This document shows, piece by piece, positions 41,486 to 64,000 of a DNA stretch of 64,000 nucleotides. The stretch's first letter is position 1. Every line of letters begins with the position of its first letter. The notes beneath the pieces are model-generated. The model was not told the origin of the DNA. It saw nothing but the letters and a program-made list of their open reading frames with translations, and made no database searches. The position numbers and the translations under genes were made by a program. Source of the DNA: Candidatus Parvarchaeota archaeon (lineage in GTDB: Archaea; Nanobdellota; Nanobdellia; JAAOXT01); contig JAFCDO010000001.1 of the NCBI GenBank assembly GCA_017609605.1, positions 9,281 through 73,280 of the forward strand, read 5' to 3'.

Positions 41486-44323
41486 ATGAATGTAATGAGA
41501 CGAGCTCAAGTGGGAATGGAGTACTTGGTACTAATATCTTTTTTCCTGCTCGTAGTCACACCTCTATTCTATTTCGCGTCAGACAGAAGTCAAAAAACAA
41601 CTAACTTAAGAGAAATTCAGATGACTGTTGATAAATTAGAGAACGCTATCAACACTGTTTACGCTGATGGGCACCCAGCGCAAAGAGAAATACTGGTTTT
41701 AATCCCTAAACTAATCAACTCCTCAGGAACTTACCTTAACGGCAGCACTGTTAATTATGCCATCAATTTTGGTGACAGGACGACAGACGTTTTCGCTGAC
41801 ACGGCCACCTGCCTTGAAGGAACTGTGCCAGTAGACCCAGGATATTATAGGATTATAATCAAGGCTTTGGAAAACGGGTGCGTGGACATAGACGTGGCTA
41901 ACATCGCGATAATTCCTCAATCCCTCAACGCTTTAGTGGATTATTCAAGAAATTTCACTCAAAGTTTTCAATTAACCAATTTGCAGGAAGCCACGATAAC
42001 AGGGATAACTGTCAACGCGATCGGAACCCTCATCAATCGCGTTGACGTTGACTCAAACGAGCCTGGCAGGCAGGACAACACGAACATTGGTGACTTAGGA
42101 GTCGGTGAGAGCAAGAATTTAGTAATAACCTTTTATGGAGACGATTACCCCGCGGTTTACGAAGGCAACCTCTCGCTGAAAGGTTTTGGCATGGCTAACA
42201 CCACGATTCCAGTCAAGTTAACCGTAAGCGTGGGAGAACTCACTATCTCGGGTTTAGAAAACGTGAACGTTGCCATAAACACGAACAAAACCATGTCATT
42301 AACAGTTTCAAACGTTGGAGCTGGCTCGTTGTTCAACACCAATCTCTCGTTGAGCAGTGAGCTCATCGGCTACGTTGACCTTAACGCTTCAACGATTGAA
42401 AAAGAGGATTTTATTGACTTAGGAACAATGGCTTCTGGAAGAAGTCAGGATTTGACTTTAAAACTGTTCGGTCTCTCTTACGGAACTTTTAACGGGTTAA
42501 TCCTCGGGAACTCCCAGCCAGGCGTTGCAGGAACCAATTCTTACAATCATTCGTTGAGCATAACCGTCGGGGACGACACCGTGCTACCCGTCATTAACTC
42601 GACGAGCGTGGATAAAACAAGTGCAATAATTGGTGGTTTGTTGTGCGTGAACGCGACTGCCACGGACGACACCCAGATAGAATCTATCTGGGTAAGTGTA
42701 ACGAACCCTGACATGCAAGCAATTAATGTCACGCTAACTGATACTGGGAGCGCGTGCGCGGGAATCAACGGGGATAACTGGTTCGGAGCAGAAATATTGT
42801 TAAACGTTAACGGGACGTGGATGGTTAACACTTCTTACGCCAAAGACACTTCGGAAAACGTTGGTTTCGAGAACGCTAACTTATTGGTCAGCGTGGAAGG
42901 AACAGACAGCATTCCTCCCATAATAACTATTGATTACCCTAAGAACGCTTCTTACCCCACCAACTCGTTCTGGATTAACGCCACCCTCAACGAAAAAGGA
43001 TCGTGGTGCGGTTACAACGTTGACTTCGCGTCACCGACAAACGTGACCATGGACCAGGAGAACGATACCAACTTTTATTCAAGCGTGACAGGTCTGTCGG
43101 ACGCAACTCATTCCATAACAGTTTACGGCAAGGACATTTACAACAACACTAATCATACTGGAAGCACTGTTCACTTCACTGTTGACACGCAAAACCCTGT
43201 TCTGGAAAACTGCAGTCTAACCAGCGAATACTTACGCGAAGGCGAGTTCTCCCAAGTCAGTTGCGACGTTATTGATGCCAACAAGGACCAAGCCTGGTTC
43301 CAAATAGGAGGACAAACCCTTCCTTCAACAGGAAAATATGGTAACACTTACTCAACGAGTTTTTATTGCTCTGAGACCGGCATCAATGAGTGGAGCACTG
43401 CTCACGCAAACGACTCGGCGGGGAACGAAGGAAGCGTCAGTGTAGGGGTTAACATTACTTGCGACACGGTTCTTCCAATCGTGAACTCAACTGCAACGAA
43501 CCAGAGTAATGCAGAGGTTGGGCAAACTATTTGCTTAAACACCCACGTTTCAGACAATTATAACGTCAGCATGGTTTGGGCTGAATTAATCACTCCATTG
43601 GACACTACTTACAACCAAATACTTTCTGACACAGGGAATCCTTGCTCAGGGGTTGAAGGAGACGGGGTTTATGGAGGAGAGCTTTATTTATTGGCCATCG
43701 GGAACTGGACTCTTGTGACCAGCCACGCCAATGATCAGGCAGGCAACACTGGAACCGACGAGTTCCACGAGAACGAAACCATTACAGTAATTTCTGGTAC
43801 AGGGGGTGGAGGGGGTTACACTTATGTTGACGTTAGCCGGGCGTATTATTTTAAGACTAACGGGCATGGAAAAAGCACTGCTGACTCTGACATGAAGTCT
43901 TGGGAAAACATAACACTTGACTTTACTGATGACAACCCTAACACTCCTGCAAGTGCTTACCAATTATTGATGGACATAAAACTGTTTGATTACGATAAGT
44001 ATGAGGGTTATGTTGTGAAGCTGGATGCTGACCCGAGTTTGTATTCTAAGGTTATCTTGAAATTCAAGGTGGACTCGTTCGATTACGAGCCTTACCCGAT
44101 AAGGATTCATGCTTATAATTCCGATGGAGAGACCATACTAACAGATACTGGTTTCACGGAGTACACTTACAGTTCAACTGGTTGGCACGAGGTTGATGTT
44201 ACGGACACGGCTCATAGAATGAATGGTTTTGGTTGGATGAGGTTTAGGATAATCCCAAAATTCGCTTGGTGGATTGATAACAAGAAATCAAGATGGGTTG
44301 AGGTTGATTTTGGAATAGAATGA
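41486..44323 (+). CDS. Giant prepilin-like adhesin (class III signal peptide plus multiple beta-sandwich/Ig-like domains)
   Basis: N-terminus MNVMRRAQVGMEYLVLISFFLLV. The N-domain is shared with 56472-58631. Internal repeats begin at DTVLPVINSTS and DTVLPIVNSTA. N-x-S/T sequons are dense. Confidence 0.75.
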   Translation: MNVMRRAQVGMEYLVLISFFLLVVTPLFYFASDRSQKTTNLREIQMTVDKLENAINTVYADGHPAQREILVLIPKLINSSGTYLNGSTVNYAINFGDRTTDVFADTATCLEGTVPVDPGYYRIIIKALENGCVDIDVANIAIIPQSLNALVDYSRNFTQSFQLTNLQEATITGITVNAIGTLINRVDVDSNEPGRQDNTNIGDLGVGESKNLVITFYGDDYPAVYEGNLSLKGFGMANTTIPVKLTVSVGELTISGLENVNVAINTNKTMSLTVSNVGAGSLFNTNLSLSSELIGYVDLNASTIEKEDFIDLGTMASGRSQDLTLKLFGLSYGTFNGLILGNSQPGVAGTNSYNHSLSITVGDDTVLPVINSTSVDKTSAIIGGLLCVNATATDDTQIESIWVSVTNPDMQAINVTLTDTGSACAGINGDNWFGAEILLNVNGTWMVNTSYAKDTSENVGFENANLLVSVEGTDSIPPIITIDYPKNASYPTNSFWINATLNEKGSWCGYNVDFASPTNVTMDQENDTNFYSSVTGLSDATHSITVYGKDIYNNTNHTGSTVHFTVDTQNPVLENCSLTSEYLREGEFSQVSCDVIDANKDQAWFQIGGQTLPSTGKYGNTYSTSFYCSETGINEWSTAHANDSAGNEGSVSVGVNITCDTVLPIVNSTATNQSNAEVGQTICLNTHVSDNYNVSMVWAELITPLDTTYNQILSDTGNPCSGVEGDGVYGGELYLLAIGNWTLVTSHANDQAGNTGTDEFHENETITVISGTGGGGGYTYVDVSRAYYFKTNGHGKSTADSDMKSWENITLDFTDDNPNTPASAYQLLMDIKLFDYDKYEGYVVKLDADPSLYSKVILKFKVDSFDYEPYPIRIHAYNSDGETILTDTGFTEYTYSSTGWHEVDVTDTAHRMNGFGWMRFRIIPKFAWWIDNKKSRWVEVDFGIE

Positions 44324-44730
44324 AAAAAGCGCAGTTAAGCATCGAGTTTTTCACAACAATCTCTTTCCTAATCATGATTCTCATAACAGTTCTCATAATA
44401 TTTTTTCAGCGGAGCACTTCGCTTAACGACATGTCCAAGAGCGATAATTTAAAAATATCTTGCCAAGAACTAAGAACCAGTTTTTACTCGCTGATAAAAT
44501 CCAATAACTTGATAGAAAACTTATCATTACCCAAGTATTCAGGAGGGCTTCCTTACTCGTATCACGCGTATCCTAATGAATCTGTGGTCGTCATCGGTTT
44601 GGATGACAAATCTTTTATCTGTAACGTTCAAACAACGGGTTTCACCAATTCTTCTATGACTGAGCACGATTTTTTTATCAATCCTTCTGGCACTGCGAAA
44701 AGTGTTGACGAGGTGATAGTGTTTGAATAA
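44320..44730 (+). CDS. Prepilin-like protein (class III signal peptide)
   Basis: MKKAQLSIEFFTTISFLIMILITVLIIFF. There is an ATGA overlap upstream. It is the counterpart of 58628-59005. Confidence 0.7.
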   Translation: MKKAQLSIEFFTTISFLIMILITVLIIFFQRSTSLNDMSKSDNLKISCQELRTSFYSLIKSNNLIENLSLPKYSGGLPYSYHAYPNESVVVIGLDDKSFICNVQTTGFTNSSMTEHDFFINPSGTAKSVDEVIVFE

Positions 44731-44731
44731 A
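44712..44731 (+). repeat. Direct repeat, copy 1
   Basis: GGTGATAGTGTTTGAATAAA. It matches 44879-44898 at 19 of 20 positions, with the first 15 identical. Confidence 0.8.
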
Positions 44732-44791
44732 CGATTCTTCTTCAAAAACTCAGAAACCTCACAACTTCACCAAAAAAGTTTTTTGGTCAAG

Positions 44792-44861
44792 CCCTCAAAA
44801 ATCATCCCGTTTTTGGGGCCCCGAAAACTTATTCGTTTTCGAAGGCTTTTTAGAGCGAATA
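44792..44861 (+). repeat. Relic segment homologous to 18042-18098 (decayed gene fragment), with overlapping alternative hairpins
   Basis: Collinear shared blocks are CCCTCAAAAA, CCCGTT, TTTGGGGC and CCGAAA, plus the CGAAA(A/C)C-loop-G(T/G)TTTCG hairpin. Hairpins lie at 44809-44828 and 44822-44841. A further palindrome lies at 44770-44786. Confidence 0.5.
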
Positions 44862-44878
44862 GCAAGAAAAAGGTTGGG

Positions 44879-44898
44879 GGTGATAGTGTTTGAGTAAA
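44879..44898 (+). repeat. Direct repeat, copy 2
   Basis: GGTGATAGTGTTTGAGTAAA, 167 nt downstream of copy 1. It contains the TTG start of the next pilin gene. Confidence 0.8.
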
Positions 44899-45369
44899 GC
44901 GCAAATATTCACGACCAGCATGATATTTACAGTAGTGTTGTTCATAGTGATTCTTGGGATTGGGGCGAGGATGTGGGATTATTTGAGTTTAACCCAGAAA
45001 GACGTTACCAGGACGAGAGAGTTGGAACTGATGGTAACTCGGGTTTCAGACTTGCTGGTGTCAACTCCTGGCCAGCCTTACAACTGGACGACTGACGTTG
45101 AGTGTTTCGGGCTCTCAACTAACAAGCCTGGGGTGCTGGACGCGGGCAAAGTCAAACTTTTTTATGATTACTCTTTGAACAATTATTCTTTCGTAAAAGA
45201 GCGGTTGGGGATAGGTGGTTACGACTTCTCTTTCAGATTGGTTAAAGGTTCCGCAACACTATACTCTTATAACTGGACTTTTGATTACTCAAGGGACTTG
45301 TCGAAATCGGAAAGAATTGTGTTGCTCAACGATACCCCAATGATTTTTGAATTGGTGGTGAGGCAGTGA
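44890..45369 (+). CDS. Prepilin-like protein
   Basis: TTG start. (M)SKAQIFTTSMIFTVVLFIVILG. The GQPYNW and LGIGGYD motifs are shared with 59002-59481. Confidence 0.65.
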   Translation: MSKAQIFTTSMIFTVVLFIVILGIGARMWDYLSLTQKDVTRTRELELMVTRVSDLLVSTPGQPYNWTTDVECFGLSTNKPGVLDAGKVKLFYDYSLNNYSFVKERLGIGGYDFSFRLVKGSATLYSYNWTFDYSRDLSKSERIVLLNDTPMIFELVVRQ

Positions 45370-45791
45370 AAAAAGGTTTCGTGTTAATAACTGACATGCT
45401 GTTAGCGATTAGCATAATGGTGGTCATGGTCACATCTTCGGTTTACGTTATGAGAAACCATCCTGATTGGAAAAGAGTCAAGGAAACCCAGATGGCTAAC
45501 GATTTGCTTAACATTATGGACGAGCATAAAGTTTTGCAAACACTTAACTCCTCCAATTATTCGTCTTTCATTCAAGAGTATTTGCCTCAACAGTATAATG
45601 TTGAATTGATTGTTAGTGTTTACAACGCCAGCGCGCTCACACAGGAAATAATTCTTTTGCAGAACTTTGTTGTCAATCACCCTATCAACGCTTCAGGACC
45701 AACTGATTTCGGCATCGTGAAAAAATCGTTCTTAATCCAAGAAGGGAGGATAAAGAATTTTGGGGTGGCTGAGGTGAGGATTTGGATATGA
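45366..45791 (+). CDS. Prepilin-like protein (KG|F type)
   Basis: GTG start overlapping the upstream stop (GTGA). (M)KKGFVLITDMLLAISIMVV. It is the counterpart of 59478-59870. Confidence 0.6.
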   Translation: MKKGFVLITDMLLAISIMVVMVTSSVYVMRNHPDWKRVKETQMANDLLNIMDEHKVLQTLNSSNYSSFIQEYLPQQYNVELIVSVYNASALTQEIILLQNFVVNHPINASGPTDFGIVKKSFLIQEGRIKNFGVAEVRIWI

Positions 45792-46624
45792 AAGGAATTA
45801 TTTTCACTGTATCAGTTTTCTTGATATTCTCATTAATACTTGAGATTGCCATGTTGATTAGTCTTGTTAACACTTCCAGCAATAAAATAATAACCAGTAC
45901 TGTTCTGAGCGAAAAAATAACTGGTTATTCCAGAAATCTTATCAGCAATTTAGAAAAAGTGGCTAACACCGAGTTAAGCGCGGATAGTGCTGGAAGCGTC
46001 AGCGTGAAAACAAGCTTTCACGATTACAACGCGACAGGTTCGTTAAAAATTTTTGAGAAATGGGTTAACAACTTCTTCAACAATCAAACAAACATTGATG
46101 TTAAAACAAATCTTTCAGGAATGAGAGAAGCGATTAATCAAGGTTCTTTACTAATCCTTTTCGAACCTCAAGGAATCACGTGGGAAAACGTTTATTCCAG
46201 TAATAAAATAATTGGTTTTGCTTTGCACGGCGCTGATAAAATTAATTCCTTGGAGTTAAACGCTTCTTTTAACTGGTCAATCGTTAACTCGACTTGGGTT
46301 GGCAACCAGCCAGGGCAAGGAAGTTTCTTGTTCTCCATAAACCTTCCTGACCACAATGCTTCTTGGTTGCTTGACAAGAAGAATTACTATTTATCAATAG
46401 GCACTAGTGAAGGCTACTTGAACGTCCAGTTAAAACTGGATTCTGGAGAATCCGATAAGGTTATTGAAATAACTCCTGACTTTTACGGCGCGGAATTCTT
46501 AACAACTTTCAAGGTAAACCAAAGTAATGTATTTAAGGCGTCATACCCCTACAATAAAACTTGGGTTAACCTATCCGCCAATAATTTTGGTTTAAGCGTT
46601 TTTAACAACGGGAAGCTCACATGA
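45788..46624 (+). CDS. Prepilin-like protein (KG|I type)
   Basis: The ATG at 45788 overlaps the upstream stop (ATGA). MKGIIFTVSVFLIFSLILEI. The track start is TTG 45782. It is the counterpart of 59867-60631. Confidence 0.6.
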   Translation: MKGIIFTVSVFLIFSLILEIAMLISLVNTSSNKIITSTVLSEKITGYSRNLISNLEKVANTELSADSAGSVSVKTSFHDYNATGSLKIFEKWVNNFFNNQTNIDVKTNLSGMREAINQGSLLILFEPQGITWENVYSSNKIIGFALHGADKINSLELNASFNWSIVNSTWVGNQPGQGSFLFSINLPDHNASWLLDKKNYYLSIGTSEGYLNVQLKLDSGESDKVIEITPDFYGAEFLTTFKVNQSNVFKASYPYNKTWVNLSANNFGLSVFNNGKLT

Positions 46625-46956
46625 ATCTAAAAAAATTGTTTAAAAAAAAATTGAAAAAACCTCTAAAAAAAGTGGTGAAACACGGTTTTGGAGGGGAAAT
46701 CCTGACAGAAGTTGACGTAATGCTCTCCCACCTTAAACAGAAGAAAAAAGCGGATCTCAATTTTTTTGTCAAAAAGTTTGGTGAAGAAGAAAAACTTGTT
46801 GAAGAGTGGGCTAAGATCTTAGAATCAAACGGGTTGATTACGGTTGATTACACTCCTTTTGGCAAGGTTGTTTTAAAGATTGTGGAAGAAAAAAAAGAAG
46901 GTGATGTGAAAGAAAAAAAGAGAGAGGAAAATGATGAAGGAAACGGAAAAAATTGA
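46621..46956 (+). CDS. Lys-rich protein with a winged-helix-like domain, coupled to the secretion ATPase
   Basis: MNLKKLFKKKLKKPLKK. Its KLVEEWAKILESNGLITVDYTPFGKVVLKI aligns with EVVEEWANELSENNLVKMKYPLIGHPYLKI in 61283-61948. Confidence 0.55.
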   Translation: MNLKKLFKKKLKKPLKKVVKHGFGGEILTEVDVMLSHLKQKKKADLNFFVKKFGEEEKLVEEWAKILESNGLITVDYTPFGKVVLKIVEEKKEGDVKEKKREENDEGNGKN

Positions 46957-48751
46957 AGTTTATAAAATAACTGCTGATAACGTTCCAGTCAACATCACGA
47001 TAACCACTAGTCTGGATGAATTCACTCCTTTGTACATCATAAAATTGCCTGTGATTGGCATTGGTTCTAAGGCAATTCTTGAAAAGGTTAAGGAAGAAAT
47101 GATTGGCGCTGTTCCCTTATCCCCGAAGGAGGCTTTGGACGTTAAATCTGTGCAGAAGACTCGGAAAGTGTTTTCAGATAAGATTCTTGAATTATTGAAG
47201 AAAGAACTGCCTAACGAGTCTGACAGGACGCTTAAAATACTCGCCGGGTTCCTCGTTCACGAAACCCTTGGTTTAGGAACTATTGAATTCTTGCTTAACG
47301 ATGAAAACCTTGAAGAGATTGTCATCAACAGTTCTGAGGATAACATTTGGGTTTACCATAAAAAGTATGGCTGGCTGAAAACCAATATTCGCATTGATAA
47401 TGAGGGCCAGATATACGATTACGCTGCCAGCATTGCTAGAGAGATTGGCCGGAGCATAAGCAATTTGAACCCGTTATTGGATGCTCACCTCATCACTGGT
47501 GACAGAGTTAACGCCACGTTATTCCCTATTTCGTCTGCGGGTAACACGATAACGATTCGTAAATTCAGAAGAAAACCGTGGACCATAACAGAATTAATCG
47601 AAAACAGGACCGTAACTTCGGAAATCGTTAGTTTTATCTGGCTGGCCATGCAGTACGAGATGAGCATCATGTTTTCCGGCGGAACGGCTAGCGGGAAAAC
47701 CACTTTCATGACTTCCTGCATGCCTTTCATCCCTCCTAACCAGAGGGTTATCAGCATTGAAGACACCAGAGAAATAATGCTTCCTAAGTTCTTGCAATGG
47801 GTTCCTTTAACCACTAGGGAGCCGAACCCTGAAGGAAAAGGTGGAGTGAGAATGCTTGACTTGCTTGTCAACTCTTTAAGGATGAGGCCAGACAGAATCA
47901 TCGTAGGGGAAGTAAGGCGTCAGCAAGAGGCTGAAGTCCTGTTCGAAGCCATTCACACAGGTCACAGCGTTTACGCAACAGTGCACGCAGACACCGCCGA
48001 ACAAACCGTCAGAAGACTTACCAATCCTCCGATAAACCTGCCTGAATCAATGGTTAGCACTTTGCCGTTGATAGTTGTTGTTTACAGGCATAGAAGAAAG
48101 GGCATAAGAAGGATTTTGGAAGTATCCGAGCTTTTAGAATCCGGGAAGGCAGAAGGAAGAGAATTAATTAACGTCAACAGAGTTTTCAGGTGGAAACCCG
48201 CTTTTGACAAGTACGAAAAAGATAATGAAAGCATCAGGGTTCTCGACGACCTAGAAATGTTTACTGGCCTGACTCGCTCAGAAGTTGAAAAAGATCTTAA
48301 GGAAAAAATCGGCGTCCTAAATTGGATGGTCAAGCACGGCGTGAACACTGTTAATACTGTTGGAAAAATTGTTTCCACTTATTACTCGCATAAAGAAAAA
48401 TTGTTACAAGATGTTAGGAAGAACGCGAGTCCTAAAGAATTGTTGGGCAAATTATGGAAAGAGATTGAAGCACCTGTTGTCACGAAAGAAGTGAAGACCA
48501 AAAAGAGTGAAACCAGTCTGAGTCAAAAAGTGATTGAAGAACTCAAAAAAACTCCTTCCCCAAAAAAACCTGTAAAGAAAAAAAGTGTTAAGGAAAAAAA
48601 GGTGGAAGAAAAAAAAGAAAAGAAATTGGAACCTAAAACGGTGAAAAAAAAAGAAGCTAAAAAAAAGCTGGTTAAGAAAAAAACGAAGAAAAAGTCTCTC
48701 GCTAAGAAAAGGTTGGTAAAGAAGAAAAGAAAGGGGGTTAAGAAGAAGTGA
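46931..48751 (+). CDS. Type II/IV secretion-family ATPase (FlaI/PilB-like) with a long Lys-rich C-terminal tail
   Basis: Walker A GGTASGKTT, ISIEDTRE, Walker B RIIVGEVRR and His box TGHSVYATVHA. The last roughly 90 aa are K-rich (..KKPVKKKSVKEKKVEEKKEKK..). Confidence 0.9.
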   Translation: MMKETEKIEVYKITADNVPVNITITTSLDEFTPLYIIKLPVIGIGSKAILEKVKEEMIGAVPLSPKEALDVKSVQKTRKVFSDKILELLKKELPNESDRTLKILAGFLVHETLGLGTIEFLLNDENLEEIVINSSEDNIWVYHKKYGWLKTNIRIDNEGQIYDYAASIAREIGRSISNLNPLLDAHLITGDRVNATLFPISSAGNTITIRKFRRKPWTITELIENRTVTSEIVSFIWLAMQYEMSIMFSGGTASGKTTFMTSCMPFIPPNQRVISIEDTREIMLPKFLQWVPLTTREPNPEGKGGVRMLDLLVNSLRMRPDRIIVGEVRRQQEAEVLFEAIHTGHSVYATVHADTAEQTVRRLTNPPINLPESMVSTLPLIVVVYRHRRKGIRRILEVSELLESGKAEGRELINVNRVFRWKPAFDKYEKDNESIRVLDDLEMFTGLTRSEVEKDLKEKIGVLNWMVKHGVNTVNTVGKIVSTYYSHKEKLLQDVRKNASPKELLGKLWKEIEAPVVTKEVKTKKSETSLSQKVIEELKKTPSPKKPVKKKSVKEKKVEEKKEKKLEPKTVKKKEAKKKLVKKKTKKKSLAKKRLVKKKRKGVKKK

Positions 48752-49638
48752 TTAAGTTCCTGCCGTTTCTCCCCATGCCTGTCAGTCAGGTTTTAAAAGT
48801 TTCAAAACCTCTTCGGTTTGTTACAGAGTCCTTAAAAAAGTTTTATCCTGAGTTAAGCGTTGAGTTATTTCAAGCAGAGATTGAAATTGAACCAATGGAT
48901 TATTTAAGACTGGTCATTTTTGCTGCTGGATTCATGTTCTTCATTGGCTTGTCATCCATGCTTTTCGTCCTGCTCATCATCAAAGAATTCTCCGCACAGA
49001 ATCTTACGATGACTTTTGGGGTTGCGGGCGCGTTGATGGTGACCGCTTACGTTTACCTTATCAATTACCCTAAGTTCAAGATCATGCAGAAGGTTAAAAG
49101 GTCTGAAAAACATCTTTTGTTTGCTCTGAGGCACTTAACGATAAGGGTTAAATCAGGGATTCCTTTAATAGACGCGATTGAAGGAATTGCAAAAGGGGAT
49201 TACGGAGAGATTTCTAAAGAGTTCATGATAGCGATAAAACAAATCAAAGCAGGGGAGTCGCAGGCCCGTTCTATCGAAGATATTGCTTTGAGAAATCCTT
49301 CAGCCGAGTTGAGAAGAGTTGTTTGGCAGGTGTCCAACGCCATGAGGGCAGGGTCCGATATCGCTAAAACGTTGGAGTCCATTGTTCACACTCTCAGCAG
49401 TAAGCAAAGAGTTAACATTAAGGAGTATGGAGCGAAACTGAATCCTTTAGCTTTAATGTACATGATGGCTACAGTGATAATCCCTGCTTTAGGCACTACC
49501 ATGGTGATTATTCTCGGCTCGTTTTTGGGTTTGGAACTGCAGAAAGAAATTTTTTATTTCGTCCCGGTTTACTTAATCATTTTCCAAGTTGCTTTCATGG
49601 GGATTGTCAAAACTAATCGACCCGCAATGGAGGTGTGA
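48748..49638 (+). CDS. FlaJ/TadC-like membrane protein with one T2SSF domain
   Basis: ALRHLTIRVKSGIPLIDAIEGIAKGDYGEISKEF...LRRVVWQV. TM helices flank the domain. The GTG start overlaps the upstream stop. Confidence 0.75.
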   Translation: MIKFLPFLPMPVSQVLKVSKPLRFVTESLKKFYPELSVELFQAEIEIEPMDYLRLVIFAAGFMFFIGLSSMLFVLLIIKEFSAQNLTMTFGVAGALMVTAYVYLINYPKFKIMQKVKRSEKHLLFALRHLTIRVKSGIPLIDAIEGIAKGDYGEISKEFMIAIKQIKAGESQARSIEDIALRNPSAELRRVVWQVSNAMRAGSDIAKTLESIVHTLSSKQRVNIKEYGAKLNPLALMYMMATVIIPALGTTMVIILGSFLGLELQKEIFYFVPVYLIIFQVAFMGIVKTNRPAMEV

Positions 49639-49639
49639 A

Positions 49640-54420: not shown

Positions 54421-55173
54421 TTAATTTACGCCAAGCAGGTTGAAAAATTTTTCAACCAGTGGAACCTTATACTCTTGGCCAAGTATTGACGCGGATATCT
54501 TTCTAATTTCTTGGGAAATCTTTGAGCGTGGAATATTGTGAACCACGGGCATATGATATCTTATACTGTCGTTAACTCTTTGGTCCATTGGCAGTTCGCC
54601 AAGAAGGTTTAGTCTCGTGAAATAAGATATCTCGTCAAGTGTTAAACCATTTTTCATGTTCTTGTTAACAATCACTCCAAGTATGCGAACCCTATATTTC
54701 TCCGCCAGCTTGGATATTTTTATGGCTTCCACCAGTGATGGCATGGTTGAATCAGTTACTATAATTCCTTCATCAACAGTGTGCATGGCCCACAAAGTCT
54801 CGTTCCCCACCGTAGGGGCCGTGTCCAAGAAAACGAAATCATAATCTTTTTTCAAGTTTTTAACGATTTCTGGAAGCTTGGACTGCTCGGTAAGACTTTC
54901 TTTTAACTGTATTGAAGCTGGAAGAACAGTCATTCCTGAAGGGTGCCTGACCAAAACCTCATCCAAATCAGACTCTCCTCTTAACATCATGTTAATGTTA
55001 GTCGGGTTTAAGTGCAATCCGAGCTGGATTCCCAATGAAGCGCACGAAAGATTTGTGTCAACCAAACAAACTTTTTTTCCGAAATCGTAAGACATGCTTG
55101 CAGCAAGGTTTATTGCAAGAGTTGTTTTTCCAACGCCTCCTTTACTCGAAAATATTCCTATAACCCTTGCCAT
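54421..55173 (-). CDS. minD: MinD/ParA-family P-loop ATPase
   Basis: Deviant Walker A SSKGGVGKTT and DTAPT. Confidence 0.85.
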   Translation of the reverse strand: MARVIGIFSSKGGVGKTTLAINLAASMSYDFGKKVCLVDTNLSCASLGIQLGLHLNPTNINMMLRGESDLDEVLVRHPSGMTVLPASIQLKESLTEQSKLPEIVKNLKKDYDFVFLDTAPTVGNETLWAMHTVDEGIIVTDSTMPSLVEAIKISKLAEKYRVRILGVIVNKNMKNGLTLDEISYFTRLNLLGELPMDQRVNDSIRYHMPVVHNIPRSKISQEIRKISASILGQEYKVPLVEKFFNLLGVN

Positions 55174-56471: not shown

Positions 56472-58631
56472 GTGATTAAAGGTCAGGTTAGCGTTGAATA
56501 CTTGATTATTGTAGGAATCCTACTCTTGGCTCTTACACCAATCGCTTATTTTGCTCAAGAACAAGCGCAACTAACAACCTCCCTAAAGCAAACCCAAGTC
56601 TCCTTAAAAAAGATTAAGAACGCTGTTAACGTAGTTAACTCTTTAGGCCCGCCATCACAACAAACACTATTAGTTCAGATTTCTGAAATGGTTAACGGCT
56701 CGTCAACAAGTGATAAAACCATAACTTTTTACACCTCCTCGGGTTCTGATTTGTGGGAAGAAGCGGACACTTGCATTGAAGGGGGCCTCCCGGAAAACCC
56801 TGGATACCATTTGATAACCATAAAGGCTTTGGATAACGGGTGTGTTTCCATTGGAGCGGAATCAATATTTATCGAACCATTATCGCTTACGCTTTTGGTT
56901 GACTTGAGTTTCAGCAAAACTCATGATTTCATGGTCACGAACACCCTATCACAACCAGTTAACGCGAACGTCACCGCCACGGGGGGCGTGGCTTCGTTAG
57001 TGGACGCGGATAACGTTACCGCGGGAAGACAAATTTTTTATGATATTGGATCGTTAAACGCGGGTGAAAGCAAAAGCGTTACTGCCGAGTTTTTCGGCGA
57101 TTCTTTAGGAGAGTATTCAGGCGTTCTTGAGTTCATGGGTGAAGACTCTACAGTTAATTCAAGCGTAACGGTCAAAGTGGTTCAAGGAGTTCTGAGTGTT
57201 GAACCCATCTACCAAATTATTGACGCTGACTTAAACGAGTACAACGAAGTTTCAATAATTATTAACAACACTGGTGAAGGAACACTATACTTTGTTAACC
57301 TAACTGTTGAACCAGGATTCGTTGATTACATAGACCTTATGCCCGGAGGGGTTAAGGATTCTTTCAGGGATTTAGGAAATCTTTCGTCAGGCATTCACGA
57401 TTACACGATAAGAATTTTCGGAAACCAAACAGGAATCAAAGATGGAAACATTACTGCGCGCGCCCTTTTCGGCCAAGAAGATAACTCTACTCTAACCATT
57501 AACGTTACAAACCCTATCCTAGTAGATTTGCATCCTGAAGTTGTTTTCGCGGACTGGTCGTCGCCTTACCAAATTACTGTTCTTAACTGGAATGGTACTC
57601 TAAAATTCGAGACAAGTGAAACAAATAACAACATTGACACTTTGGGTTTGGGAGGGAATAACATTCTGGCTGGAACAAATAATAATGGATTGGTTTATGC
57701 TTTAAATGGAGTTGATGGTTCTCAATTATGGAATCATACTTTATCAATTTTGGGTGACAGACTTAAGTCAAATATTGAAATTTATGATGGAAGTGTTTTT
57801 CTTGGAGGTAATTTAAAAAAGGTTTACAAAATCAACGCTAGCACAGGAGTTGAAATTTGGGTTTCAAGTAATTTTGCCCAGAACTCTATTGAAACCCTTG
57901 GAATCGGAGATTTTAACGGAGACTCCTTCATTGACGTGGCTGTCGCGGATATTGGGAACAAGCAAGTCTACGCTTTTGACGGAAGCGACGGATCTGTTTT
58001 GTGGTCTGCTACGCTTTCTTCAGCTGCCCTAATTGAGTCCAAGATTCTTATTGCAGAAGCCACTGGCGACTTTTTTGATGACGTTTTTGTTGGAACAAAC
58101 AAGAAAAAAGTTTACTTGCTCAATGGAAATGATGGAAGCGAGGTTTGGGTTTCTGGCAGTATCGGGGCCAACGTTGACTACATCACTGTTGGTGATTTCA
58201 ACAACGACGGAGTTAATGATGTTGCAGGCATGAATGATTGGGATGAATTCTTGTACGCTTTTTACGGGCAGAACGGTTCCCAAATGTGGAGTTATCAAAC
58301 CAATTGGGAGAACGCTTATGTTCTCGAATCAAAAGATTTGAACCATAATGGTTTTGACGACGTGATTTTCGGAAGAGACAACCAGAACGATTTCACTGTC
58401 CTTCATGGGGTGAACGGGACTCTAATGTATGTTTCTGACAATTGCCCTATAGCCATTAATCATTTGAATTTCGTTGACCTTAATTTAGACGGACTTATTG
58501 ATGTTGTTGGGGGTTTGACTTGGGATAACAGAATCGTGGCTTGGCAAGGAATAAACGGAACTCTGATGTGGACTTATTCTGCTGACGATGACGTTTCTTC
58601 AAACCTTCTAGCTGGACAGGTTGATTCATGA
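56472..58631 (+). CDS. Prepilin-like protein fused to a seven-bladed FG-GAP/PQQ-like beta-propeller
   Basis: N-terminus (M)IKGQVSVEYLIIVGILLLAL. The N-domain is shared with 41486-44323 (TCIEGGLPENPGYHLITIKALDNGCVSI). The C-terminus has seven repeats of the type VYA(L/F)xGxDGSxxW, several preceded by GDFNxDGxxDV loops. Confidence 0.75.
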   Translation: MIKGQVSVEYLIIVGILLLALTPIAYFAQEQAQLTTSLKQTQVSLKKIKNAVNVVNSLGPPSQQTLLVQISEMVNGSSTSDKTITFYTSSGSDLWEEADTCIEGGLPENPGYHLITIKALDNGCVSIGAESIFIEPLSLTLLVDLSFSKTHDFMVTNTLSQPVNANVTATGGVASLVDADNVTAGRQIFYDIGSLNAGESKSVTAEFFGDSLGEYSGVLEFMGEDSTVNSSVTVKVVQGVLSVEPIYQIIDADLNEYNEVSIIINNTGEGTLYFVNLTVEPGFVDYIDLMPGGVKDSFRDLGNLSSGIHDYTIRIFGNQTGIKDGNITARALFGQEDNSTLTINVTNPILVDLHPEVVFADWSSPYQITVLNWNGTLKFETSETNNNIDTLGLGGNNILAGTNNNGLVYALNGVDGSQLWNHTLSILGDRLKSNIEIYDGSVFLGGNLKKVYKINASTGVEIWVSSNFAQNSIETLGIGDFNGDSFIDVAVADIGNKQVYAFDGSDGSVLWSATLSSAALIESKILIAEATGDFFDDVFVGTNKKKVYLLNGNDGSEVWVSGSIGANVDYITVGDFNNDGVNDVAGMNDWDEFLYAFYGQNGSQMWSYQTNWENAYVLESKDLNHNGFDDVIFGRDNQNDFTVLHGVNGTLMYVSDNCPIAINHLNFVDLNLDGLIDVVGGLTWDNRIVAWQGINGTLMWTYSADDDVSSNLLAGQVDS

Positions 58632-59005
58632 AAGCACAGGTTAGCGTGGAAACACTTTTCGTAATTACTTTCATGGTCTCCTTATTTATAGTCATCACTA
58701 ACTCAGTGTATCACCGGAAGACCATGCTTGAATCCCAAGAATTTCTCGTCGAAGTTAAAAGCGTTTGCAACGCTTTCAGCAGCAAAGTGGCTGACGCGAC
58801 GCTGTTAGAAGGACTGGAAACCAATATGACTTTGAAAGGGTATAACTTGAGCGTTCAAGACAAGTCCGTGCAAGTCTTCTCCGAAAACGAAACAGTTTTC
58901 TGCAGTATGATAACAAGCGTGACCAACGGTTCTCACAGCGATTTCAACATCTCACAAGAAGTCGTGACCATCCAAAATTTGAACGGGGGCGTGATGATAA
59001 GTTGA
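58628..59005 (+). CDS. Prepilin-like protein
   Basis: MKAQVSVETLFVITFMVSLFIVI. ATGA overlap upstream. Confidence 0.7.
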   Translation: MKAQVSVETLFVITFMVSLFIVITNSVYHRKTMLESQEFLVEVKSVCNAFSSKVADATLLEGLETNMTLKGYNLSVQDKSVQVFSENETVFCSMITSVTNGSHSDFNISQEVVTIQNLNGGVMIS

Positions 59006-59870: not shown

Positions 59871-60631
59871 AAAAAGGGATCCTTATGTCACTAATGACTC
59901 TTGCTTTCTTCACAGTCATAAGTTCTCTGGTCTTCCTTGTCTTCATCCAAAACAACAATTATGGTGAGACTTTTGTTAACTCAATCGCTGCTTCCCGGAC
60001 GAGCCAGGAGGTAAATACCGTGAAAAACAATCTTTTCAAAGCAACAAATCTTTATCACTCCGTTTCAAGCAGTGACTCAGTTAACCTAACATTTCATTCT
60101 TATTTGAACTCTTTTTTTAACGCTAGTCATAACATGAACTCTTATGACTCTTTCCTAACCCATGTTTACGGCATCTCTCACGACTTTTCTAACCTGATCT
60201 TGAGCGTTGATAACGGTTACTTGGAACAAATCGTTCAACCGTATGGAATCCTGATAACTAATAATTATTCTGCCAAAAAAATTGTTTGGAACAATACGAG
60301 CTCAGCGACTGCACTAAAACTAAAACTGCCAGAAGTTAATCAAGTGACTTGGCAGAACGATGCGGGCTCACTGAAGGTCATAATTGAAAGCCCAGAGTTT
60401 TATGAGGAAAAACTTGTGGGCGAAGCCAACGTAACAGTAAAAATCAGTGAAAGTTCTAACGTGACCTGGCAGGTCCGTCAAAACAATTTCACTTTAAATT
60501 ATTCTAATTCGAGCGGTGAAACTGCTGAATTAACTCTCGTCCTGCCTGAAGAAGAAAGCTTGAGAATCAATTTTGTCCAAGAGTACGGCCTAAACGTTTC
60601 AGCAGGAAAATATTATTTTAAAAATGTCTAA
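59867..60631 (+). CDS. Prepilin-like protein (KG|I type)
   Basis: ATG 59867 overlaps the upstream stop (ATGA). MKKGILMSLMTLAFFTVISSLVF. An alternative ATG lies at 59861. Confidence 0.6.
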   Translation: MKKGILMSLMTLAFFTVISSLVFLVFIQNNNYGETFVNSIAASRTSQEVNTVKNNLFKATNLYHSVSSSDSVNLTFHSYLNSFFNASHNMNSYDSFLTHVYGISHDFSNLILSVDNGYLEQIVQPYGILITNNYSAKKIVWNNTSSATALKLKLPEVNQVTWQNDAGSLKVIIESPEFYEEKLVGEANVTVKISESSNVTWQVRQNNFTLNYSNSSGETAELTLVLPEEESLRINFVQEYGLNVSAGKYYFKNV

Positions 60632-61235
60632 TCATTTCTTTGTAAAGCTCTTCAACGTTCCAACCCGTTTTAGCGCTAATCAAAATAAGATTGTAATCAG
60701 GGAAAGCTTCTTGCACGAATGACACGTCAGAGCTCTCGTCCATCTTATTAACAACTATCAAAACTTTTTTGCCAGCGAACTCCAAATTATTGACAAGCAT
60801 CCTAGTCATGTCATCCACCCCATCAGCTAACGCGTCCACGACTACCAAAGCTCCGTCCACACTTTCTATCGCTTTAATGCTCTCAACAACGCCGTTAACG
60901 GCCTCCACCGTCCTCAAACTCGCGCCATGCCCCTTCATACCATACTCAGAAAACATGTCTGGATCTATTTTCTCGCTCACTCCCGGGGTATCCATCACCT
61001 CAAAATCCAGTGTTAATCTTCCCACCTTCAATTTCACGCCTTTTCTTGATTTCACTTTCCTAGTCTCGTGAGGCACGGGGGAAACCTTCCCCAATTCTTC
61101 CAAGCCAATATCATTAAGTATTCTATTAATGAGCGTGGTTTTACCAGAGTTTGGAGGGCCAAAAACGCCTATCACTACTGGTTTCCTCCTAATCTTCCGG
61201 AAAAAAATCCTTGATAACAGTTTTAAAACATTCAT
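60618..61235 (-). CDS. Small TRAFAC-class GTPase (Era/EngB-like)
   Basis: G1 GPPNSGKTT, G3 DTPG, G4 NKMD and G5 SAK. ATG 61235 is preferred over the track start at 61283. Confidence 0.75.
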   Translation of the reverse strand: MNVLKLLSRIFFRKIRRKPVVIGVFGPPNSGKTTLINRILNDIGLEELGKVSPVPHETRKVKSRKGVKLKVGRLTLDFEVMDTPGVSEKIDPDMFSEYGMKGHGASLRTVEAVNGVVESIKAIESVDGALVVVDALADGVDDMTRMLVNNLEFAGKKVLIVVNKMDESSDVSFVQEAFPDYNLILISAKTGWNVEELYKEMIRHF

Positions 61236-61282
61236 TCCCAAAACAATATTTATATTACCCCGAATATTTAAAATATATATCA

Positions 61283-61948
61283 ATGCCTCCTAAAAAAAGT
61301 TCGCGTAAAAAAAACAAGAAACCAGTGAAAAACCCTGTTAAAAAAATTGTTAAACCTAAAGTCAAGAAACATATCAAAAAAAAAGTGGGTTGCGAACTTC
61401 AAGAAATATTCGGTCAAGCACTAAAAGTCGGGATCCAGCACGAAAAGATTAGAAAAGATATAATCAAATACGGTTTAGAAGAACTGGAAAAAATTGAGAA
61501 AGACCCGAAAAAAGCTTTTAAGATAAGAAATAAATGGACTTCAACTCTTGATAAAACTTTTCGCAAAGGCGGGAAAAGAATTATGTGGTTCCTAAAACCA
61601 GGGTTCTGGGAGCCAATACAGGAAGAACTGCCCTTCCTTGACGAGAAATCCTGGATTAAAAAGAGCCAAGAAAAACTCGACAAAGCGGTTAAGAACTTTA
61701 AAGTGACTAAAATCAAAACCAGGAGTGGAAAAACCATAATCCTACCACCTCTTAACCGTTTCGACACGAAAGCGGATTTATTGCTTGAAATAGTGAAAAT
61801 GACGAAAAAAATCAGTGTTAAAGAACTTTCAAAAATATTGAAGGCGGACTATGAAGTAGTGGAAGAATGGGCTAACGAGCTAAGCGAAAACAATTTAGTC
61901 AAGATGAAGTACCCGCTGATAGGCCACCCTTACCTAAAAATAAAATGA
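61283..61948 (+). CDS. Lys-rich protein with a winged-helix-like C-terminal domain, coupled to the secretion ATPase
   Basis: MPPKKSSRKKNKKPVKNPVKKIVKPKVKKHIKKK. The C-terminus ISVKELSKILKADYEVVEEWANELSENNLVKMKYPLIGHPYLKI is homologous to 46621-46956. Confidence 0.55.
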   Translation: MPPKKSSRKKNKKPVKNPVKKIVKPKVKKHIKKKVGCELQEIFGQALKVGIQHEKIRKDIIKYGLEELEKIEKDPKKAFKIRNKWTSTLDKTFRKGGKRIMWFLKPGFWEPIQEELPFLDEKSWIKKSQEKLDKAVKNFKVTKIKTRSGKTIILPPLNRFDTKADLLLEIVKMTKKISVKELSKILKADYEVVEEWANELSENNLVKMKYPLIGHPYLKIK

Positions 61949-63456
61949 AGATAATCACGAATTACAAAACAACAACTTTTGACGTAGAAATCCCTGTCAG
62001 AATCCTCCAAAAGAAAGGAGAATACACTCTTGTTTACGAGGTTTCACTACCCGAGGTTAAGCCCGCTACCCGAGCCATAATTATGGGGATTAAAGAAGAT
62101 TTAATGCATGAAGTAAAATTATCAGAGGAAGAAATTATTGACGAGAGAGCGATAAAAATGGTTCAGACCAAAATAAAGGAAAAAGCTGTCAAAATAATGA
62201 GAAAGAACTTTCCAAAAGAGTCTAAAGAAAAGCTAAACAATCTCCTGTGCGTAATTCTTTCAGAAACGATTGGGCTCGGACCCGTGGAATACTTGCTTAA
62301 CGACCCTGAACTGGAAGAAGTAGTGGTTCACGGGCAAAAAGCTCCTGCCTGGGTTTACCATAGAACGCACGGCTGGCTTAAAACAAACATTTTTTTAACA
62401 GAAAAACAGGTTTACGATTACTCCACAATAATTGGAAGAAAAGTTGGGAGAAGCATAAGCCGTCTTGACCCCTTACTAGATGCTAGGTTATTAAACGGTG
62501 ACAGGATTAACGCGGTATTATATCCCATATCCTACTTTGGTAATACGATAACGATTCGTAAATTCAGGAAAAAACCTTGGACGATTGTGGACTTGATAAA
62601 AAATGACACGCTAACAGTCGAAGAGGCCGCACTCCTATGGCTGGCAACCCAGTATGAAATATCTTATCTCATTGCTGGCGGAACGGCTAGCGGGAAAACC
62701 ACGCTTCTGAACACCTTAATGGCTTTCATTCCTCCAAATCATAGAGTGATTAGCATTGAAGACACCAAAGAACTTCAACTTCCATCATTTCTTTACTGGA
62801 CTTCCCTAGTGGTCAGGGAGCCAAACCTTGAAGGCAAAGGAGGTATTAGTATGCAAGAACTCTTAATCAACTCTTTAAGGATGCGGCCGGACAGAATTAT
62901 TGTTGGAGAAGTTAGAAGAAAGTTTGAAGCAGAAACCTTGTTCGAAGCCATTCACACGGGTCACAGCGTTTACGCAACAGTTCATGCTGAAACAGGAGAG
63001 CAAACCGTTCAAAGACTTACCCACGACCCAATGAACATTCCTGAAGGGATGATAAGCGCAATTCCCTTGATTGTTGTCATGTTCAGGGATCGAAGAAAAG
63101 GAATAAGAAGATTATCAGAATTGTCAGAGGTCATATCCACCGAAATCATGGGAAAAGCAAGGATTGTCATCAACAAGGTTCGGGAATGGGATTCCAGTTC
63201 TAACGAACACTTTTCCTCAAACCCATCCAAAACCTTAACACAAAAAATAAAGGTGTACACCGGGATGAGCGAAGAAGATGTTACAAAAGACTTGAACGAC
63301 AAAAAAAAGGTTTTGAAATGGATGATTGAAAATGAGTTAAGCGGGTTAGAAAACGTTGGCAGGATTATAAGCGCTTATTTTCTGGATTCCAGAACTCTTC
63401 TTGAAATGATTCGAAAAAATTGTTCAAAAGCAGAGGTTCTAAAACATTATGGGTGA
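61945..63456 (+). CDS. Type II/IV secretion-family ATPase (FlaI/PilB-like); paralogue of 46931-48751
   Basis: GGTASGKTT, ISIEDTKE, RIIVGEVRR and TGHSVYATVHA. ATGA overlap upstream. Confidence 0.9.
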   Translation: MKIITNYKTTTFDVEIPVRILQKKGEYTLVYEVSLPEVKPATRAIIMGIKEDLMHEVKLSEEEIIDERAIKMVQTKIKEKAVKIMRKNFPKESKEKLNNLLCVILSETIGLGPVEYLLNDPELEEVVVHGQKAPAWVYHRTHGWLKTNIFLTEKQVYDYSTIIGRKVGRSISRLDPLLDARLLNGDRINAVLYPISYFGNTITIRKFRKKPWTIVDLIKNDTLTVEEAALLWLATQYEISYLIAGGTASGKTTLLNTLMAFIPPNHRVISIEDTKELQLPSFLYWTSLVVREPNLEGKGGISMQELLINSLRMRPDRIIVGEVRRKFEAETLFEAIHTGHSVYATVHAETGEQTVQRLTHDPMNIPEGMISAIPLIVVMFRDRRKGIRRLSELSEVISTEIMGKARIVINKVREWDSSSNEHFSSNPSKTLTQKIKVYTGMSEEDVTKDLNDKKKVLKWMIENELSGLENVGRIISAYFLDSRTLLEMIRKNCSKAEVLKHYG

Positions 63457-64000
63457 ATTGATTGATTATGCTAGAAACTTTAAGGGTCTAGCAAAACTTC
63501 TTTCTTCCATGTTTCCAAGACTGTCACCAACACTCAAGTGGGCGGGCATCAAACAATCAGTTCTTGATTACACCAGCCTAGCGATCCTCATATCCGCTTC
63601 TTTCAGCGCTTTTTACACTACGTCAGCGCTGATAACATTATTTTTTTTGAATATTTTAAACCCGTATAACTTCCTATTCTCGCTCGCAACAGGTTTTCTG
63701 ATCTTTTGGCTTGCTTTCATACTAAAAATGAGGCAACCTTATTTTTTAGCGAATAAAAGGTCGAAAGACTTTGATAAGAACATTGCGTTCGCAATAAGAG
63801 AGATTTACGTCAGAGTAAATTCCGGGCAAACCCTTTTCAACGCGATTTCTCGAGTCGGGTTTGGTGATTACGGAGAGATTTCTGAAGAATTCAAAAAATA
63901 TGTTCACAAGTTGGAGACGGGCAAAAGCGAGTTAGAAGCGCTTGAAGAACTTGCGGGAAGGATTGCTTCAGAGGACTTCCGGCGACTGCTCTGGCAGTTA
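63449..64000 (+). CDS. FlaJ/TadC-like membrane protein, 5' part (runs off the window)
   Basis: AIREIYVRVNSGQTLFNAISRVGFGDYGEISEEF...FRRLLWQL parallels 48748-49638. The ATG overlaps the end of the ATPase gene. Confidence 0.7.
   Translation, partial: MGELIDYARNFKGLAKLLSSMFPRLSPTLKWAGIKQSVLDYTSLAILISASFSAFYTTSALITLFFLNILNPYNFLFSLATGFLIFWLAFILKMRQPYFLANKRSKDFDKNIAFAIREIYVRVNSGQTLFNAISRVGFGDYGEISEEFKKYVHKLETGKSELEALEELAGRIASEDFRRLLWQL

Follow-up and report, generated by a model that had tools for sequence, protein, structure and literature searches.

The stretch of DNA analysed here, in the following called the window, comprises 64,000 nucleotides (nt) of a Candidatus Parvarchaeota archaeon (assembly GCA_017609605.1, contig JAFCDO010000001.1, positions 9,281 to 73,280 of the forward strand) and contains two gene arrays for type IV filaments, named locus A and locus B. 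Each locus encodes five prepilins with class III signal peptides, which belong to the families P1 to P5 and follow each other in fixed order, a small protein with a winged-helix (wH) domain, an assembly ATPase of the PilB/FlaI family and two platform proteins of the T2SSF family. We consider it likely that the two loci are operons for archaeal type IV pili of a kind which occurs across the DPANN archaea, and that these pili work by the mechanism proposed below. The open reading frames (ORFs) of the window were listed and translated, the proteins were scanned with Pfam and NCBIfam profiles, and the two loci were compared with each other by BLASTP. Locus A is a plus-strand array at 41486-50620 (A1 to A9), which is followed by A10. 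Locus B starts with B0, which is encoded on the minus strand from 55542, and continues as a plus-strand array (B1 to B8) up to the window end (64000+). The gap between the loci is about 4-6 kb, and two kinds of KaiC-like gene are found between them. The genes are as follows (a slash marks the putative cleavage site of the signal peptide).

41486-44323, plus strand: A1 (P1 family), modular pilin-adhesin of 945 amino acids with the class III signal peptide RRA/QVGMEY
44320-44730, plus strand: A2 (P2 family), small Q-x-S-x-E-[FY] pilin of 136 amino acids, homologous to the P1 pilin module
44890-45369, plus strand: A3 (P3 family), prepilin KA/QIF... of 159 amino acids, from the most widely conserved minor-pilin family
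45366-45791, plus strand: A4 (P4 family), prepilin KG/FVLITD of 141 amino acids with Asp at +6
45782-46624, plus strand: A5 (P5 family), prepilin of 280 amino acids; in every case the P5 gene is the final pilin gene ahead of wH
46621-46956, plus strand: A6, Lys-rich protein of 111 amino acids with polybasic N-terminus and wH domain (residues 30-87, 46708-46881)
46931-48751, plus strand: A7, PilB/FlaI-family assembly ATPase of 606 amino acids (Pfam T2SSE, 3.7e-33)
48748-49638, plus strand: A8, N-terminal half of the platform, TadB-like, 296 amino acids, one T2SSF domain (2e-18)
49589-50620, plus strand: A9, C-terminal half of the platform, TadC-like, 343 amino acids, one T2SSF domain (4.5e-14); probable start ATG at 49640
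50761-51441, plus strand: A10, degenerate single-domain KaiC-like protein of 226 amino acids (PF06745, 1.8e-22)
55542-56384, minus strand: B0, canonical single-domain KaiC-like ATPase of 280 amino acids (PF06745, 4.4e-63), divergent from locus B
56472-58631, plus strand: B1 (P1 family), modular pilin-adhesin of 719 amino acids with the class III signal peptide KG/QVSVEY and a PQQ/FG-GAP beta-propeller
58628-59005, plus strand: B2 (P2 family), small pilin KA/QVSVET of 125 amino acids
59002-59481, plus strand: B3 (P3 family), prepilin of 159 amino acids
59466-59870, plus strand: B4 (P4 family), prepilin of 134 amino acids
59861-60631, plus strand: B5 (P5 family), prepilin of 256 amino acids
61211-61948, plus strand: B6, 245 amino acids with a polybasic N-terminal region and a C-terminal wH domain (about residues 186-244, 61766-61942)
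61945-63456, plus strand: B7, PilB/FlaI-family assembly ATPase of 503 amino acids (T2SSE, 2.1e-34)
63449-64000, plus strand: B8, first platform gene (T2SSF), cut by the window end

An earlier note on the window had described two collinear type IV filament clusters of this gene order with 4-nt overlaps at most junctions, and the ORFs and their translations confirm both points. The profiles for T2SSE, T2SSF, the class III signal and KaiC, which it had proposed as a check, match the expected proteins; for the Pfam model Class_IIIsignal B1 reaches 23.7 bits, which is exactly the cut-off, and A1 15 bits. The single FlaJ/TadC-like platform gene that was assigned to each locus, however, has to be replaced by two T2SSF genes. 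These are A8 and A9 in locus A, and B8 (283 amino acids) and B9 (326 amino acids) in locus B, which can be followed to its end in a sister strain ('Nanoarchaeota archaeon DPANNHV_H2.bin.114', contig L001/L018, seen in L018). This contig is about 97-98% identical to the window and reaches beyond its end. TATA-like sequences precede A1 (CTTTATAA at 41460-41467) and B1 (AATTAATAAAA near 56440). Locus B is split between B5 and B6 by a GTPase gene on the opposite strand (60618-61283), which is not conserved elsewhere.

Three scans of the GTDB reference genomes resulted in 97 usable DPANN loci from Woese-, Pace-, Micr-, Aenigmat-, Iain-, Nanohalo-, Parv- and Altiarchaeota. The neighbours of the ATPase genes were counted with profiles made from the proteins of the window itself, and the denominators given in the following are the loci that could be assessed. 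The complete order of P1 to P5, wH, ATPase and two T2SSF genes was found again in no fewer than 12 loci, which belong to four phyla. Two T2SSF genes follow the ATPase gene in 61 of 71 loci. In a second common layout the pilins are encoded by a divergent operon and a KaiC gene follows the second platform gene. The genome of a nanohaloarchaeon (CP046106, L051) contains the same arrangement of wH, ATPase and two T2SSF genes. The component set, which had been called non-canonical, is that of the standard DPANN pilus operon. The profile scan of the reference genomes confirmed at least 595 related loci.

A neighbor-joining tree was calculated from 93 DPANN ATPases and three reference sequences from the PDB (AfGspE, FlaI and CpaF). 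All DPANN ATPases including A7 and B7 form one clade apart from the three references (bootstrap 100/100). The median distance within this clade is 0.64, compared with 1.2-1.4 to the references (about 1.2-1.3 to AfGspE and FlaI). CpaF is the farthest reference for A7 (1.37), and for B7 the distances to CpaF (1.34) and FlaI (1.36) are about equal. The best solved relative of A7 is AfGspE (2OAP) with 241 bits, followed by FlaI (201) and CpaF (161). At least 7,890 homologues of A7 are found in a large protein database at E <= 1e-20, and among the matches listed the closest are 55-61% identical and originate from DPANN. A7 matches PilB3_C weakly (17 bits, cut-off 27), and this domain is carried by its close homologues. 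The last hundred or so residues of A7 (506-606, 48446-48751) form a C-terminal tail that consists of 45% Lys/Arg. A tail of at least 25 amino acids is present in 8 of 93 relatives, and about five of these tails are basic.

The two loci are related gene by gene. The ATPases A7 and B7 share 50% identity, A1 and B1 35% over the first 340 amino acids (E 6e-54), and the wH domains of A6 and B6 34% (E 5e-6). A3/B3 (E 2e-16), A4/B4 (E 9e-11) and A5/B5 (E 1e-6) also match each other, and the weak match of A2 and B2 (E 1e-3) is upheld by profile comparison. As judged from these alignments, the position-by-position paralogy of locus A and locus B is far beyond chance. The idea of a duplicated system holds as far as paralogy is concerned, but not in the sense of a recent duplication. 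A7 and B7 are not sisters in the tree (2 of 100 bootstraps), and B7 groups with a sequence from Woesearchaeota (L031) in 80 of 100. This indicates that the loci are old paralogues, or that one of them was acquired from another DPANN archaeon, and not a recent tandem duplication. A contig from Micrarchaeota (JABWCK010000003.1, L041/L081) mirrors the layout of the window: two pilus loci lie about 9 kb apart, a degenerate and a canonical KaiC-like gene are found between them, and their ATPases are likewise no sisters (0/100).

The wH proteins A6 and B6 have in common a domain of about 65 residues, which is also encoded upstream of the ATPase in relatives. No Pfam or NCBIfam family passes its threshold for this domain. 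AlphaFold2 predicts residues 30-87 of A6 with a predicted local distance difference test (pLDDT) score above 90 and in the canonical winged-helix topology H-b-H-H-b-b. The sequence profile finds the winged helix-turn-helix (wHTH) domain of IclR at 2.8e-4, and Foldseek finds generic wHTH proteins only (ArsR, MarR, AspA; E about 3e-3 or weaker). The family is large, with 3,262 members at E <= 1e-3 and 1,452 at E <= 1e-10 in a hidden Markov model search of 1.84 billion cluster representatives.

In 76 of 88 loci the ATPase gene has a wH gene at a distance of up to 7 kb, and in 64 of these 88 the wH gene is located directly upstream on the same strand, so that its place beside the ATPase, supposed from the window, is kept in relatives. 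The reading frames of wH and ATPase overlap in both loci of the window. Sampling outward from the wH gene leads to T2SSE just downstream in both assessable contigs (2/2). In metagenome-assembled genomes (MAGs) of two sister lineages (L080:6698-8500 and L097:6746-8485) the ATPase carries the wH domain as an in-frame N-terminal fusion. The parts to which the domain is joined vary among relatives and include N-terminal transmembrane (TM) helices, polybasic linkers (31 of 79 proteins), CBS pairs and DUF2226, for which a literature search gave no match. Coiled coils of about 450 residues are found in wH proteins of Micrarchaeota, and a metagenomic protein of 657 amino acids (P0139) consists of five tandem wH copies with charged linkers between them. 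Helix 3, which would be the recognition helix of a DNA-binding protein, has the acidic consensus EEWAxILEE, and on average the domain has a net charge of -1.2. The fixed position before the ATPase, the fusions, the varied partners and the acidic helix 3 together argue for a function of wH at the ATPase and against a classical regulator. It is probably an adaptor that docks on the motor.

It could be argued that wH is an ordinary transcription factor which autoregulates the pilus operon and is no structural partner of the ATPase. The profile and fold matches to regulators of the IclR, MarR, ArsR and Lrs14 types are in line with this view, and regulator genes are found at many type IV pilus loci of archaea (Makarova 2016, PMC4858521). 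We regard it as unlikely, because a gene in the middle of the operon, overlapping the ATPase frame and fused to it in two lineages, is not what is expected of such a regulator. The same applies to the N-terminal TM anchors or long coiled coils, to the acidic helix 3 and to the missing of dimerisation elements like those of MarR and ArsR. For the adaptor a further-reaching proposal can be made, to which we give somewhat less than an even chance. According to this proposal the wH family would provide the DPANN pilus motor with a subunit of its own, which is present almost universally. It would act as a portable docking domain on the N-terminal face of the ATPase and would tether the ATPase to the membrane (by TM helices or polybasic segments), to coiled-coil scaffolds or to sensors (CBS, DUF2226), thereby controlling where and when host-contact pili form. 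In two lineages it would have become part of the ATPase itself.

The basic segments also allow the speculation that the filaments are competence-like pili for DNA uptake, in which DNA entering the cell is handled by wH and the Lys-rich segments of A6, B6 and A7 and feeds a nucleotide-auxotrophic DPANN archaeon. Import of DNA by pili was proposed in the literature for Undinarchaeota and Nanohaloarchaeota, the wHTH fold is typical of DNA binders, and polybasic stretches are present in the wH proteins counted above as well as in the tail of A7. However, helix 3 as the presumed recognition helix is acidic, the wH domain as a whole is negatively charged, the polybasic segments are not conserved, with the tail being restricted to the few ATPases already mentioned, and Pfam scans revealed no gene for ComEC, DprA or a nuclease in either locus. 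The large adhesin domains described below indicate binding to surfaces or cells, which is compatible with DNA uptake. On balance this function seems rather improbable.

A combined motif and hydropathy scan for proteins down to 60 amino acids found exactly the ten expected prepilins in the loci, all of the families P1 to P5, plus one at 20830. Family alignments across loci gave the mature N-terminal consensus sequences QvSmEY for P1, QaSiEF for P2, QafSxD for P3 and FIFSLDA for P4. The first 135 or so residues of P1 are homologous to P2 over their whole length (hhalign probability 97%, E 3e-11), while the similarity of P3 and P4 in profile-profile comparison is confined to the N-terminal helix. 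P1 proteins are of normal size in many loci (130-160 amino acids) and extended in others (400-945 amino acids), and P1 is therefore a modular pilin. None of the P1 to P5 proteins matches a PilA-type Pfam model. A database search with the N-terminal 340 amino acids of A1 found nothing at 1e-5, so that no deep alignment of P1 could be built. The profile of P1 and P2 gave sub-threshold matches only in the PDB, which were to pilins and archaellins (E >= 0.03).

The extended part of P1 is different in the two loci. In A1 the pilin module of about 135 amino acids is followed by a region similar to B1 up to about residue 340 and then by a unique C-terminal part. This part contains two repeats of about 95 amino acids each (residues 366-460 and 662-756), which were revealed by Smith-Waterman alignment with shuffled controls (z = 24.7) and escaped a BLAST self-comparison. 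The C-terminal half of A1 has no match among solved structures. B1 consists of the pilin module, the shared middle region and the beta-propeller at about residues 390-719. Between the sister strains B1 is 92-100% identical at residues 1-300 and 40-70% identical at residues 350-720, compared with 92-99% for neighbouring proteins; apart from B1, all genes of both loci encode proteins that are 87-99% identical. At the nucleotide level the C-terminal half of B1 (57484-58631) cannot be aligned to the sister strain at 57484-57760, and the stretch after 57760 is 78% (L001) or 87% (L018) identical, compared with about 96% elsewhere. Such variability would be expected of a recognition domain that is exposed at the surface. 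Different tip domains in the two copies had been anticipated from the window, and the repeats of A1 and the hypervariable propeller of B1 agree with that. Since the loci differ mainly in the binding domain, they would form two filaments with different targets.

Short pseudopili of the bindosome or secretion type, which show substrate-binding proteins for the scavenging of nutrients in place of long adhesive fibres, are a very improbable explanation. The census of Sivabalasarma & Albers 2026 proposes a widespread functionalisation of archaeal type IV filament machines with binding proteins that carry class III signals, and the window encodes an eleventh protein with such a signal outside the loci (20830-22014). 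But none of the ten prepilins contains a Pfam solute-binding-protein domain, the BasE model scores 138-147 bits compared with a cut-off of 1000, and the cargo domains are of propeller or Ig-like adhesin types. That the loci are reduced archaella with the KaiC-like proteins in the role of ArlH is hardly credible: although JGI labels homologues of A7 as 'flagellar protein FlaI', FlaI is the best NCBIfam model and ArlH is itself a single-domain KaiC-like protein, the FlaI equivalog NF058587 scores 281-282 bits for A7 and B7 (cut-off 550) and the ArlH model 47.8 and 44.1 bits for the KaiC-like proteins (cut-off 215), no locus protein matches archaellins, ArlF, ArlG, ArlC, ArlD, ArlE or ArlX at E 0.1, and the ATPase clade stands apart from FlaI (100/100). 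Hamm 2019 (PMC6642349) likewise concluded for Nanohaloarchaeota that the system is no archaellum. The phylogenetic placement suggested earlier has given a DPANN clade separate from the three references and no position among archaella.

For the pilus operons we propose the following mechanism. A prepilin peptidase encoded elsewhere would cut after [KR][GA], and the hexameric ATPase, docked on the platform of A8/A9 (or B8/B9), would lift the pilins from the membrane into the filament. P2, or the short P1 forms of other genomes, would be the bulk subunit with Gln1 and Glu5, and P3, P4 and P5 would form a priming or tip complex like bacterial minor pilins. As P1 has the pilin module of P2 it would fit into the same filament lattice, and its large binding domain at the C-terminus may be displayed at the fibre or along it. 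The target of the filament would most plausibly be a host cell or a surface. The wH protein would be a cytoplasmic adaptor, membrane-tethered or polybasic, which docks on the ATPase, resembles ArlX, ArlCDE or PilM, and is probably no DNA-binding regulator. B0 may be an optional regulatory switch like ArlH or CirA, and A10 a degenerate copy. ArlH binds ArlI, and the KaiC-like protein CirA regulates arl genes; both are experimental precedents for a KaiC-like control of type IV filament machines.

Several points weigh against this interpretation. The filament of this organism is predicted from its genes, and none was observed. Among about 50 ORFs of the window scanned with Pfam there is no prepilin peptidase of the A24 family; the gene for this enzyme is often located elsewhere in the genome. 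A2 is a candidate major subunit. Its AlphaFold2 model, for which the alignment consisted of the four P1/P2 modules of the window, has a mean pLDDT of 49.5 and is confident for the N-terminal helix only. The roles of P3, P4 and P5 are assigned purely by analogy, and the contact of wH with the ATPase is deduced from gene order and the two fusions. The wHTH fold is equally what a transcription factor would have. Finally, a KaiC-like gene is found within 7 kb in 23 of 95 loci and is absent from about three quarters of them, and in the window unrelated genes separate the two KaiC-like genes.

Clusters of this kind have been reported before. Hamm 2019 described FlaI, FlaJ and a pilin with Ig/PKD adhesion domains in the proteome of Ca. 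Nanohaloarchaeum, pointed out that Woesearchaeota and Diapherotrites have these structures as well, and suggested that they serve the interaction with the host. Makarova 2019 (PMC6393860, Fig. 2A) shows DPANN islands with FlaI, TadB, TadC and dark-matter pilins. Xie 2022 (PMC9563170) reports TadA-TadB-TadC clusters with and without kaiC, and pairs of kaiC in DPANN pilus clusters. In the census of Sivabalasarma & Albers 2026 DPANN loci with two platform genes are assigned to 'system 1' and 'subsystem 4A'. A link between KaiC and archaeal type IV pili was already noted by Makarova 2016. The window shares with these published clusters the FlaI-type ATPase, the two platform genes, dark-matter prepilins, pilins with adhesion domains, an occasional kaiC and the proposal of host contact, and it differs from them in that two loci lie at a distance of 4-6 kb from each other, with KaiC-like genes of two kinds in the interval. 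The system is therefore not an undescribed one, as had been thought in the earlier note. Its description as an adhesion-type type IV filament of a DPANN archaeon is supported, and host-contact filaments with two tip specificities are a reasonable idea, parts of which are supported; the idea of host contact was already published.

Among the other known systems the euryarchaeal pili of clade 2 (AfGspE AF0659; PilB3-PilC3 of Haloferax) are similar as AfGspE, which is assigned to clade 2 / arCOG01817 in Figure S4 of Makarova, is the best solved relative of A7 and as two tadC genes as well as associations with KaiC and MinD are described for that clade. In contrast to them the DPANN ATPases form their own clade (100/100 from AfGspE and FlaI) and the pilins of the window lack PilA-type matches. 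The Epd pilus of Methanococcus maripaludis (EpdJ/EpdK) and the bacterial Tad pili (TadB/TadC) also have a split platform, several minor pilins and an adhesin-like component. Unlike Epd, the loci of the window contain neither an EppA-type peptidase nor a major pilin of about 70 amino acids lacking a globular domain; the smallest prepilin has 125. The Aap and Ups pili of Sulfolobales have a single fused platform protein (AapF/UpsF), whereas A8 and A9 match the halves of UpsF separately (profile positions 31-246 and 269-439, with 22 and 34 bits compared with a cut-off of 400). Bacterial modular pilins and PilY1 (PilB/PilC of S. sanguinis; PilY1 of P. aeruginosa) show the same principle of a pilin module fused to or associated with a large binding domain, together with four or five minor pilins. 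The C-terminal domain of PilY1 is a beta-propeller as in B1. However, the propeller of B1 is fused directly to the pilin module, and the likeness to PilY1 is one of architecture. The scaffold of ArlX/ArlCDE with ArlH resembles the loci in having membrane-anchored or coiled-coil cytoplasmic proteins at the ATPase, with anchors comparable to those of wH proteins, and a single-domain KaiC-like partner. It differs as there is no sequence similarity to wH, the wH domain is present in neither ArlX nor ArlCDE, and B0 keeps the catalytic Glu pair and is far below the ArlH cut-off.

The accessible text of Hamm 2019, Makarova 2019, Xie 2022 and Sivabalasarma & Albers 2026 makes no mention of a wH gene upstream of the ATPase, of an order of five pilin families or of a homology of P1 and P2; the wH gene may stand unlabelled in the published locus diagrams. 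New here are thus likely the order of the five pilin families, the homology of the P1 and P2 modules with P1 as variable slot, the hypervariability of B1 at strain level and the wH family as a likely motor adaptor. In particular, the small wH protein, which accompanies the motor ATPase as its likely partner across DPANN, seems to have escaped description so far. For DPANN archaea, whose life depends on attachment to other cells, pili are the leading candidates for making this contact. One operon design is common to DPANN phyla and combines an ordered set of five pilin families with a wH adaptor, an ATPase and a platform in two parts. In this design P1 is the slot where binding domains swap and diversify even between strains, so that genomes could be used to predict which hosts or surfaces are bound. 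As a probable new component of the motor, the wH protein can be tested in the few cultivated DPANN systems, among them the nanohaloarchaeon of genome CP046106. While the loci of the window are a well-formed but ordinary example, the wH adaptor is a lead worth following.

A KaiC-like ATPase had been associated with each locus. There is one near both, but the two differ in kind, and with the low frequency among relatives given above a KaiC-like gene is an optional neighbour and not a core part. A10 and B0 are 25% identical, differently placed and of different subtypes. B0 contains the Walker A motif GGPGSGKT and the catalytic LEEE and represents a type that recurs at DPANN pilus loci, where it either follows the second platform gene or points away from the pilin genes. 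A10 shows the KaiC features in part; it has kept Walker A (GKPGTGKS) and contains FVTTDR, with Thr-Asp in place of the Glu-Glu pair. Close relatives of A10 are found in the sister strain only, and weak A10-like second copies adjoin B0-type genes in two other loci (L024 and L041).

Further genes lie between and within the loci. A11 (51438-51881, 147 amino acids) overlaps the end of A10 by 4 nt and has no Pfam match. It was considered as a KaiB-like partner of A10, which was dropped as A11 is not conserved: no homologue was found in any fetched locus, and the gene is missing from the sister strain. A MinD/ParA-type ATPase (54421-55173) is encoded on the same strand as B0 and scores 164 bits with TIGR01969 (cut-off 202). 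It adjoins the gene of a protein of 211 amino acids without Pfam match (X_211, the pair at 53774-55173), and this pair recurs in the sister strain only. MinD-like ATPases are proposed regulators of type IV pili. A MinD-like gene was counted in 3 loci of the census, two of which belong to the sister strain. The MinD-like gene, X_211, the GTPase and A11 were considered as parts of the system and rejected for lack of recurrence: outside the sister strain MinD is present at 1 related locus, and the other three genes are present at no related locus.

Between the stop of A2 and the start of A3 the window contains a specific insert of 167 bp (44712-44893 region), which is flanked by a perfect 15-bp direct repeat, GGTGATAGTGTTTGA, at 44712-44726 and 44879-44893. 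The sister strain lacks the insert, and its A2 and A3 genes overlap. There is a single copy of the insert in the window, with a z of -2.5 for the RNA fold. This looks like the insertion of a small mobile element with a target-site duplication, or else like a repeat-mediated deletion in the sister strain.

The remaining window is an ordinary archaeal chromosome with genes for a Hel308-type helicase with archaeal domain 4, eIF2-alpha, GINS, primase, PAC2, KsgA and a P-type ATPase. The genomes nearest to it are DPANN MAGs, and the genome is that of a DPANN archaeon of the Nanoarchaeota/Woesearchaeota type. No RNA genes were revealed in the window by tRNA and Rfam scans. Amid the housekeeping genes an ORF of 313 amino acids (5293-6234) matches Pfam GP88 (phage gene product 88) at 2e-16. 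A plus-strand cluster of five genes at 20830-30333, all without Pfam match, starts with the eleventh class-III-signal protein (20830-22014, 394 amino acids, KKG/QIAVPV). It further encodes a polytopic membrane protein of 791 amino acids with a Cys-rich domain, a Cys-rich lipobox protein of 1321 amino acids and two paralogous lipobox proteins of 346 and 324 amino acids. This cluster may be another surface or adhesion module that shares the prepilin peptidase.

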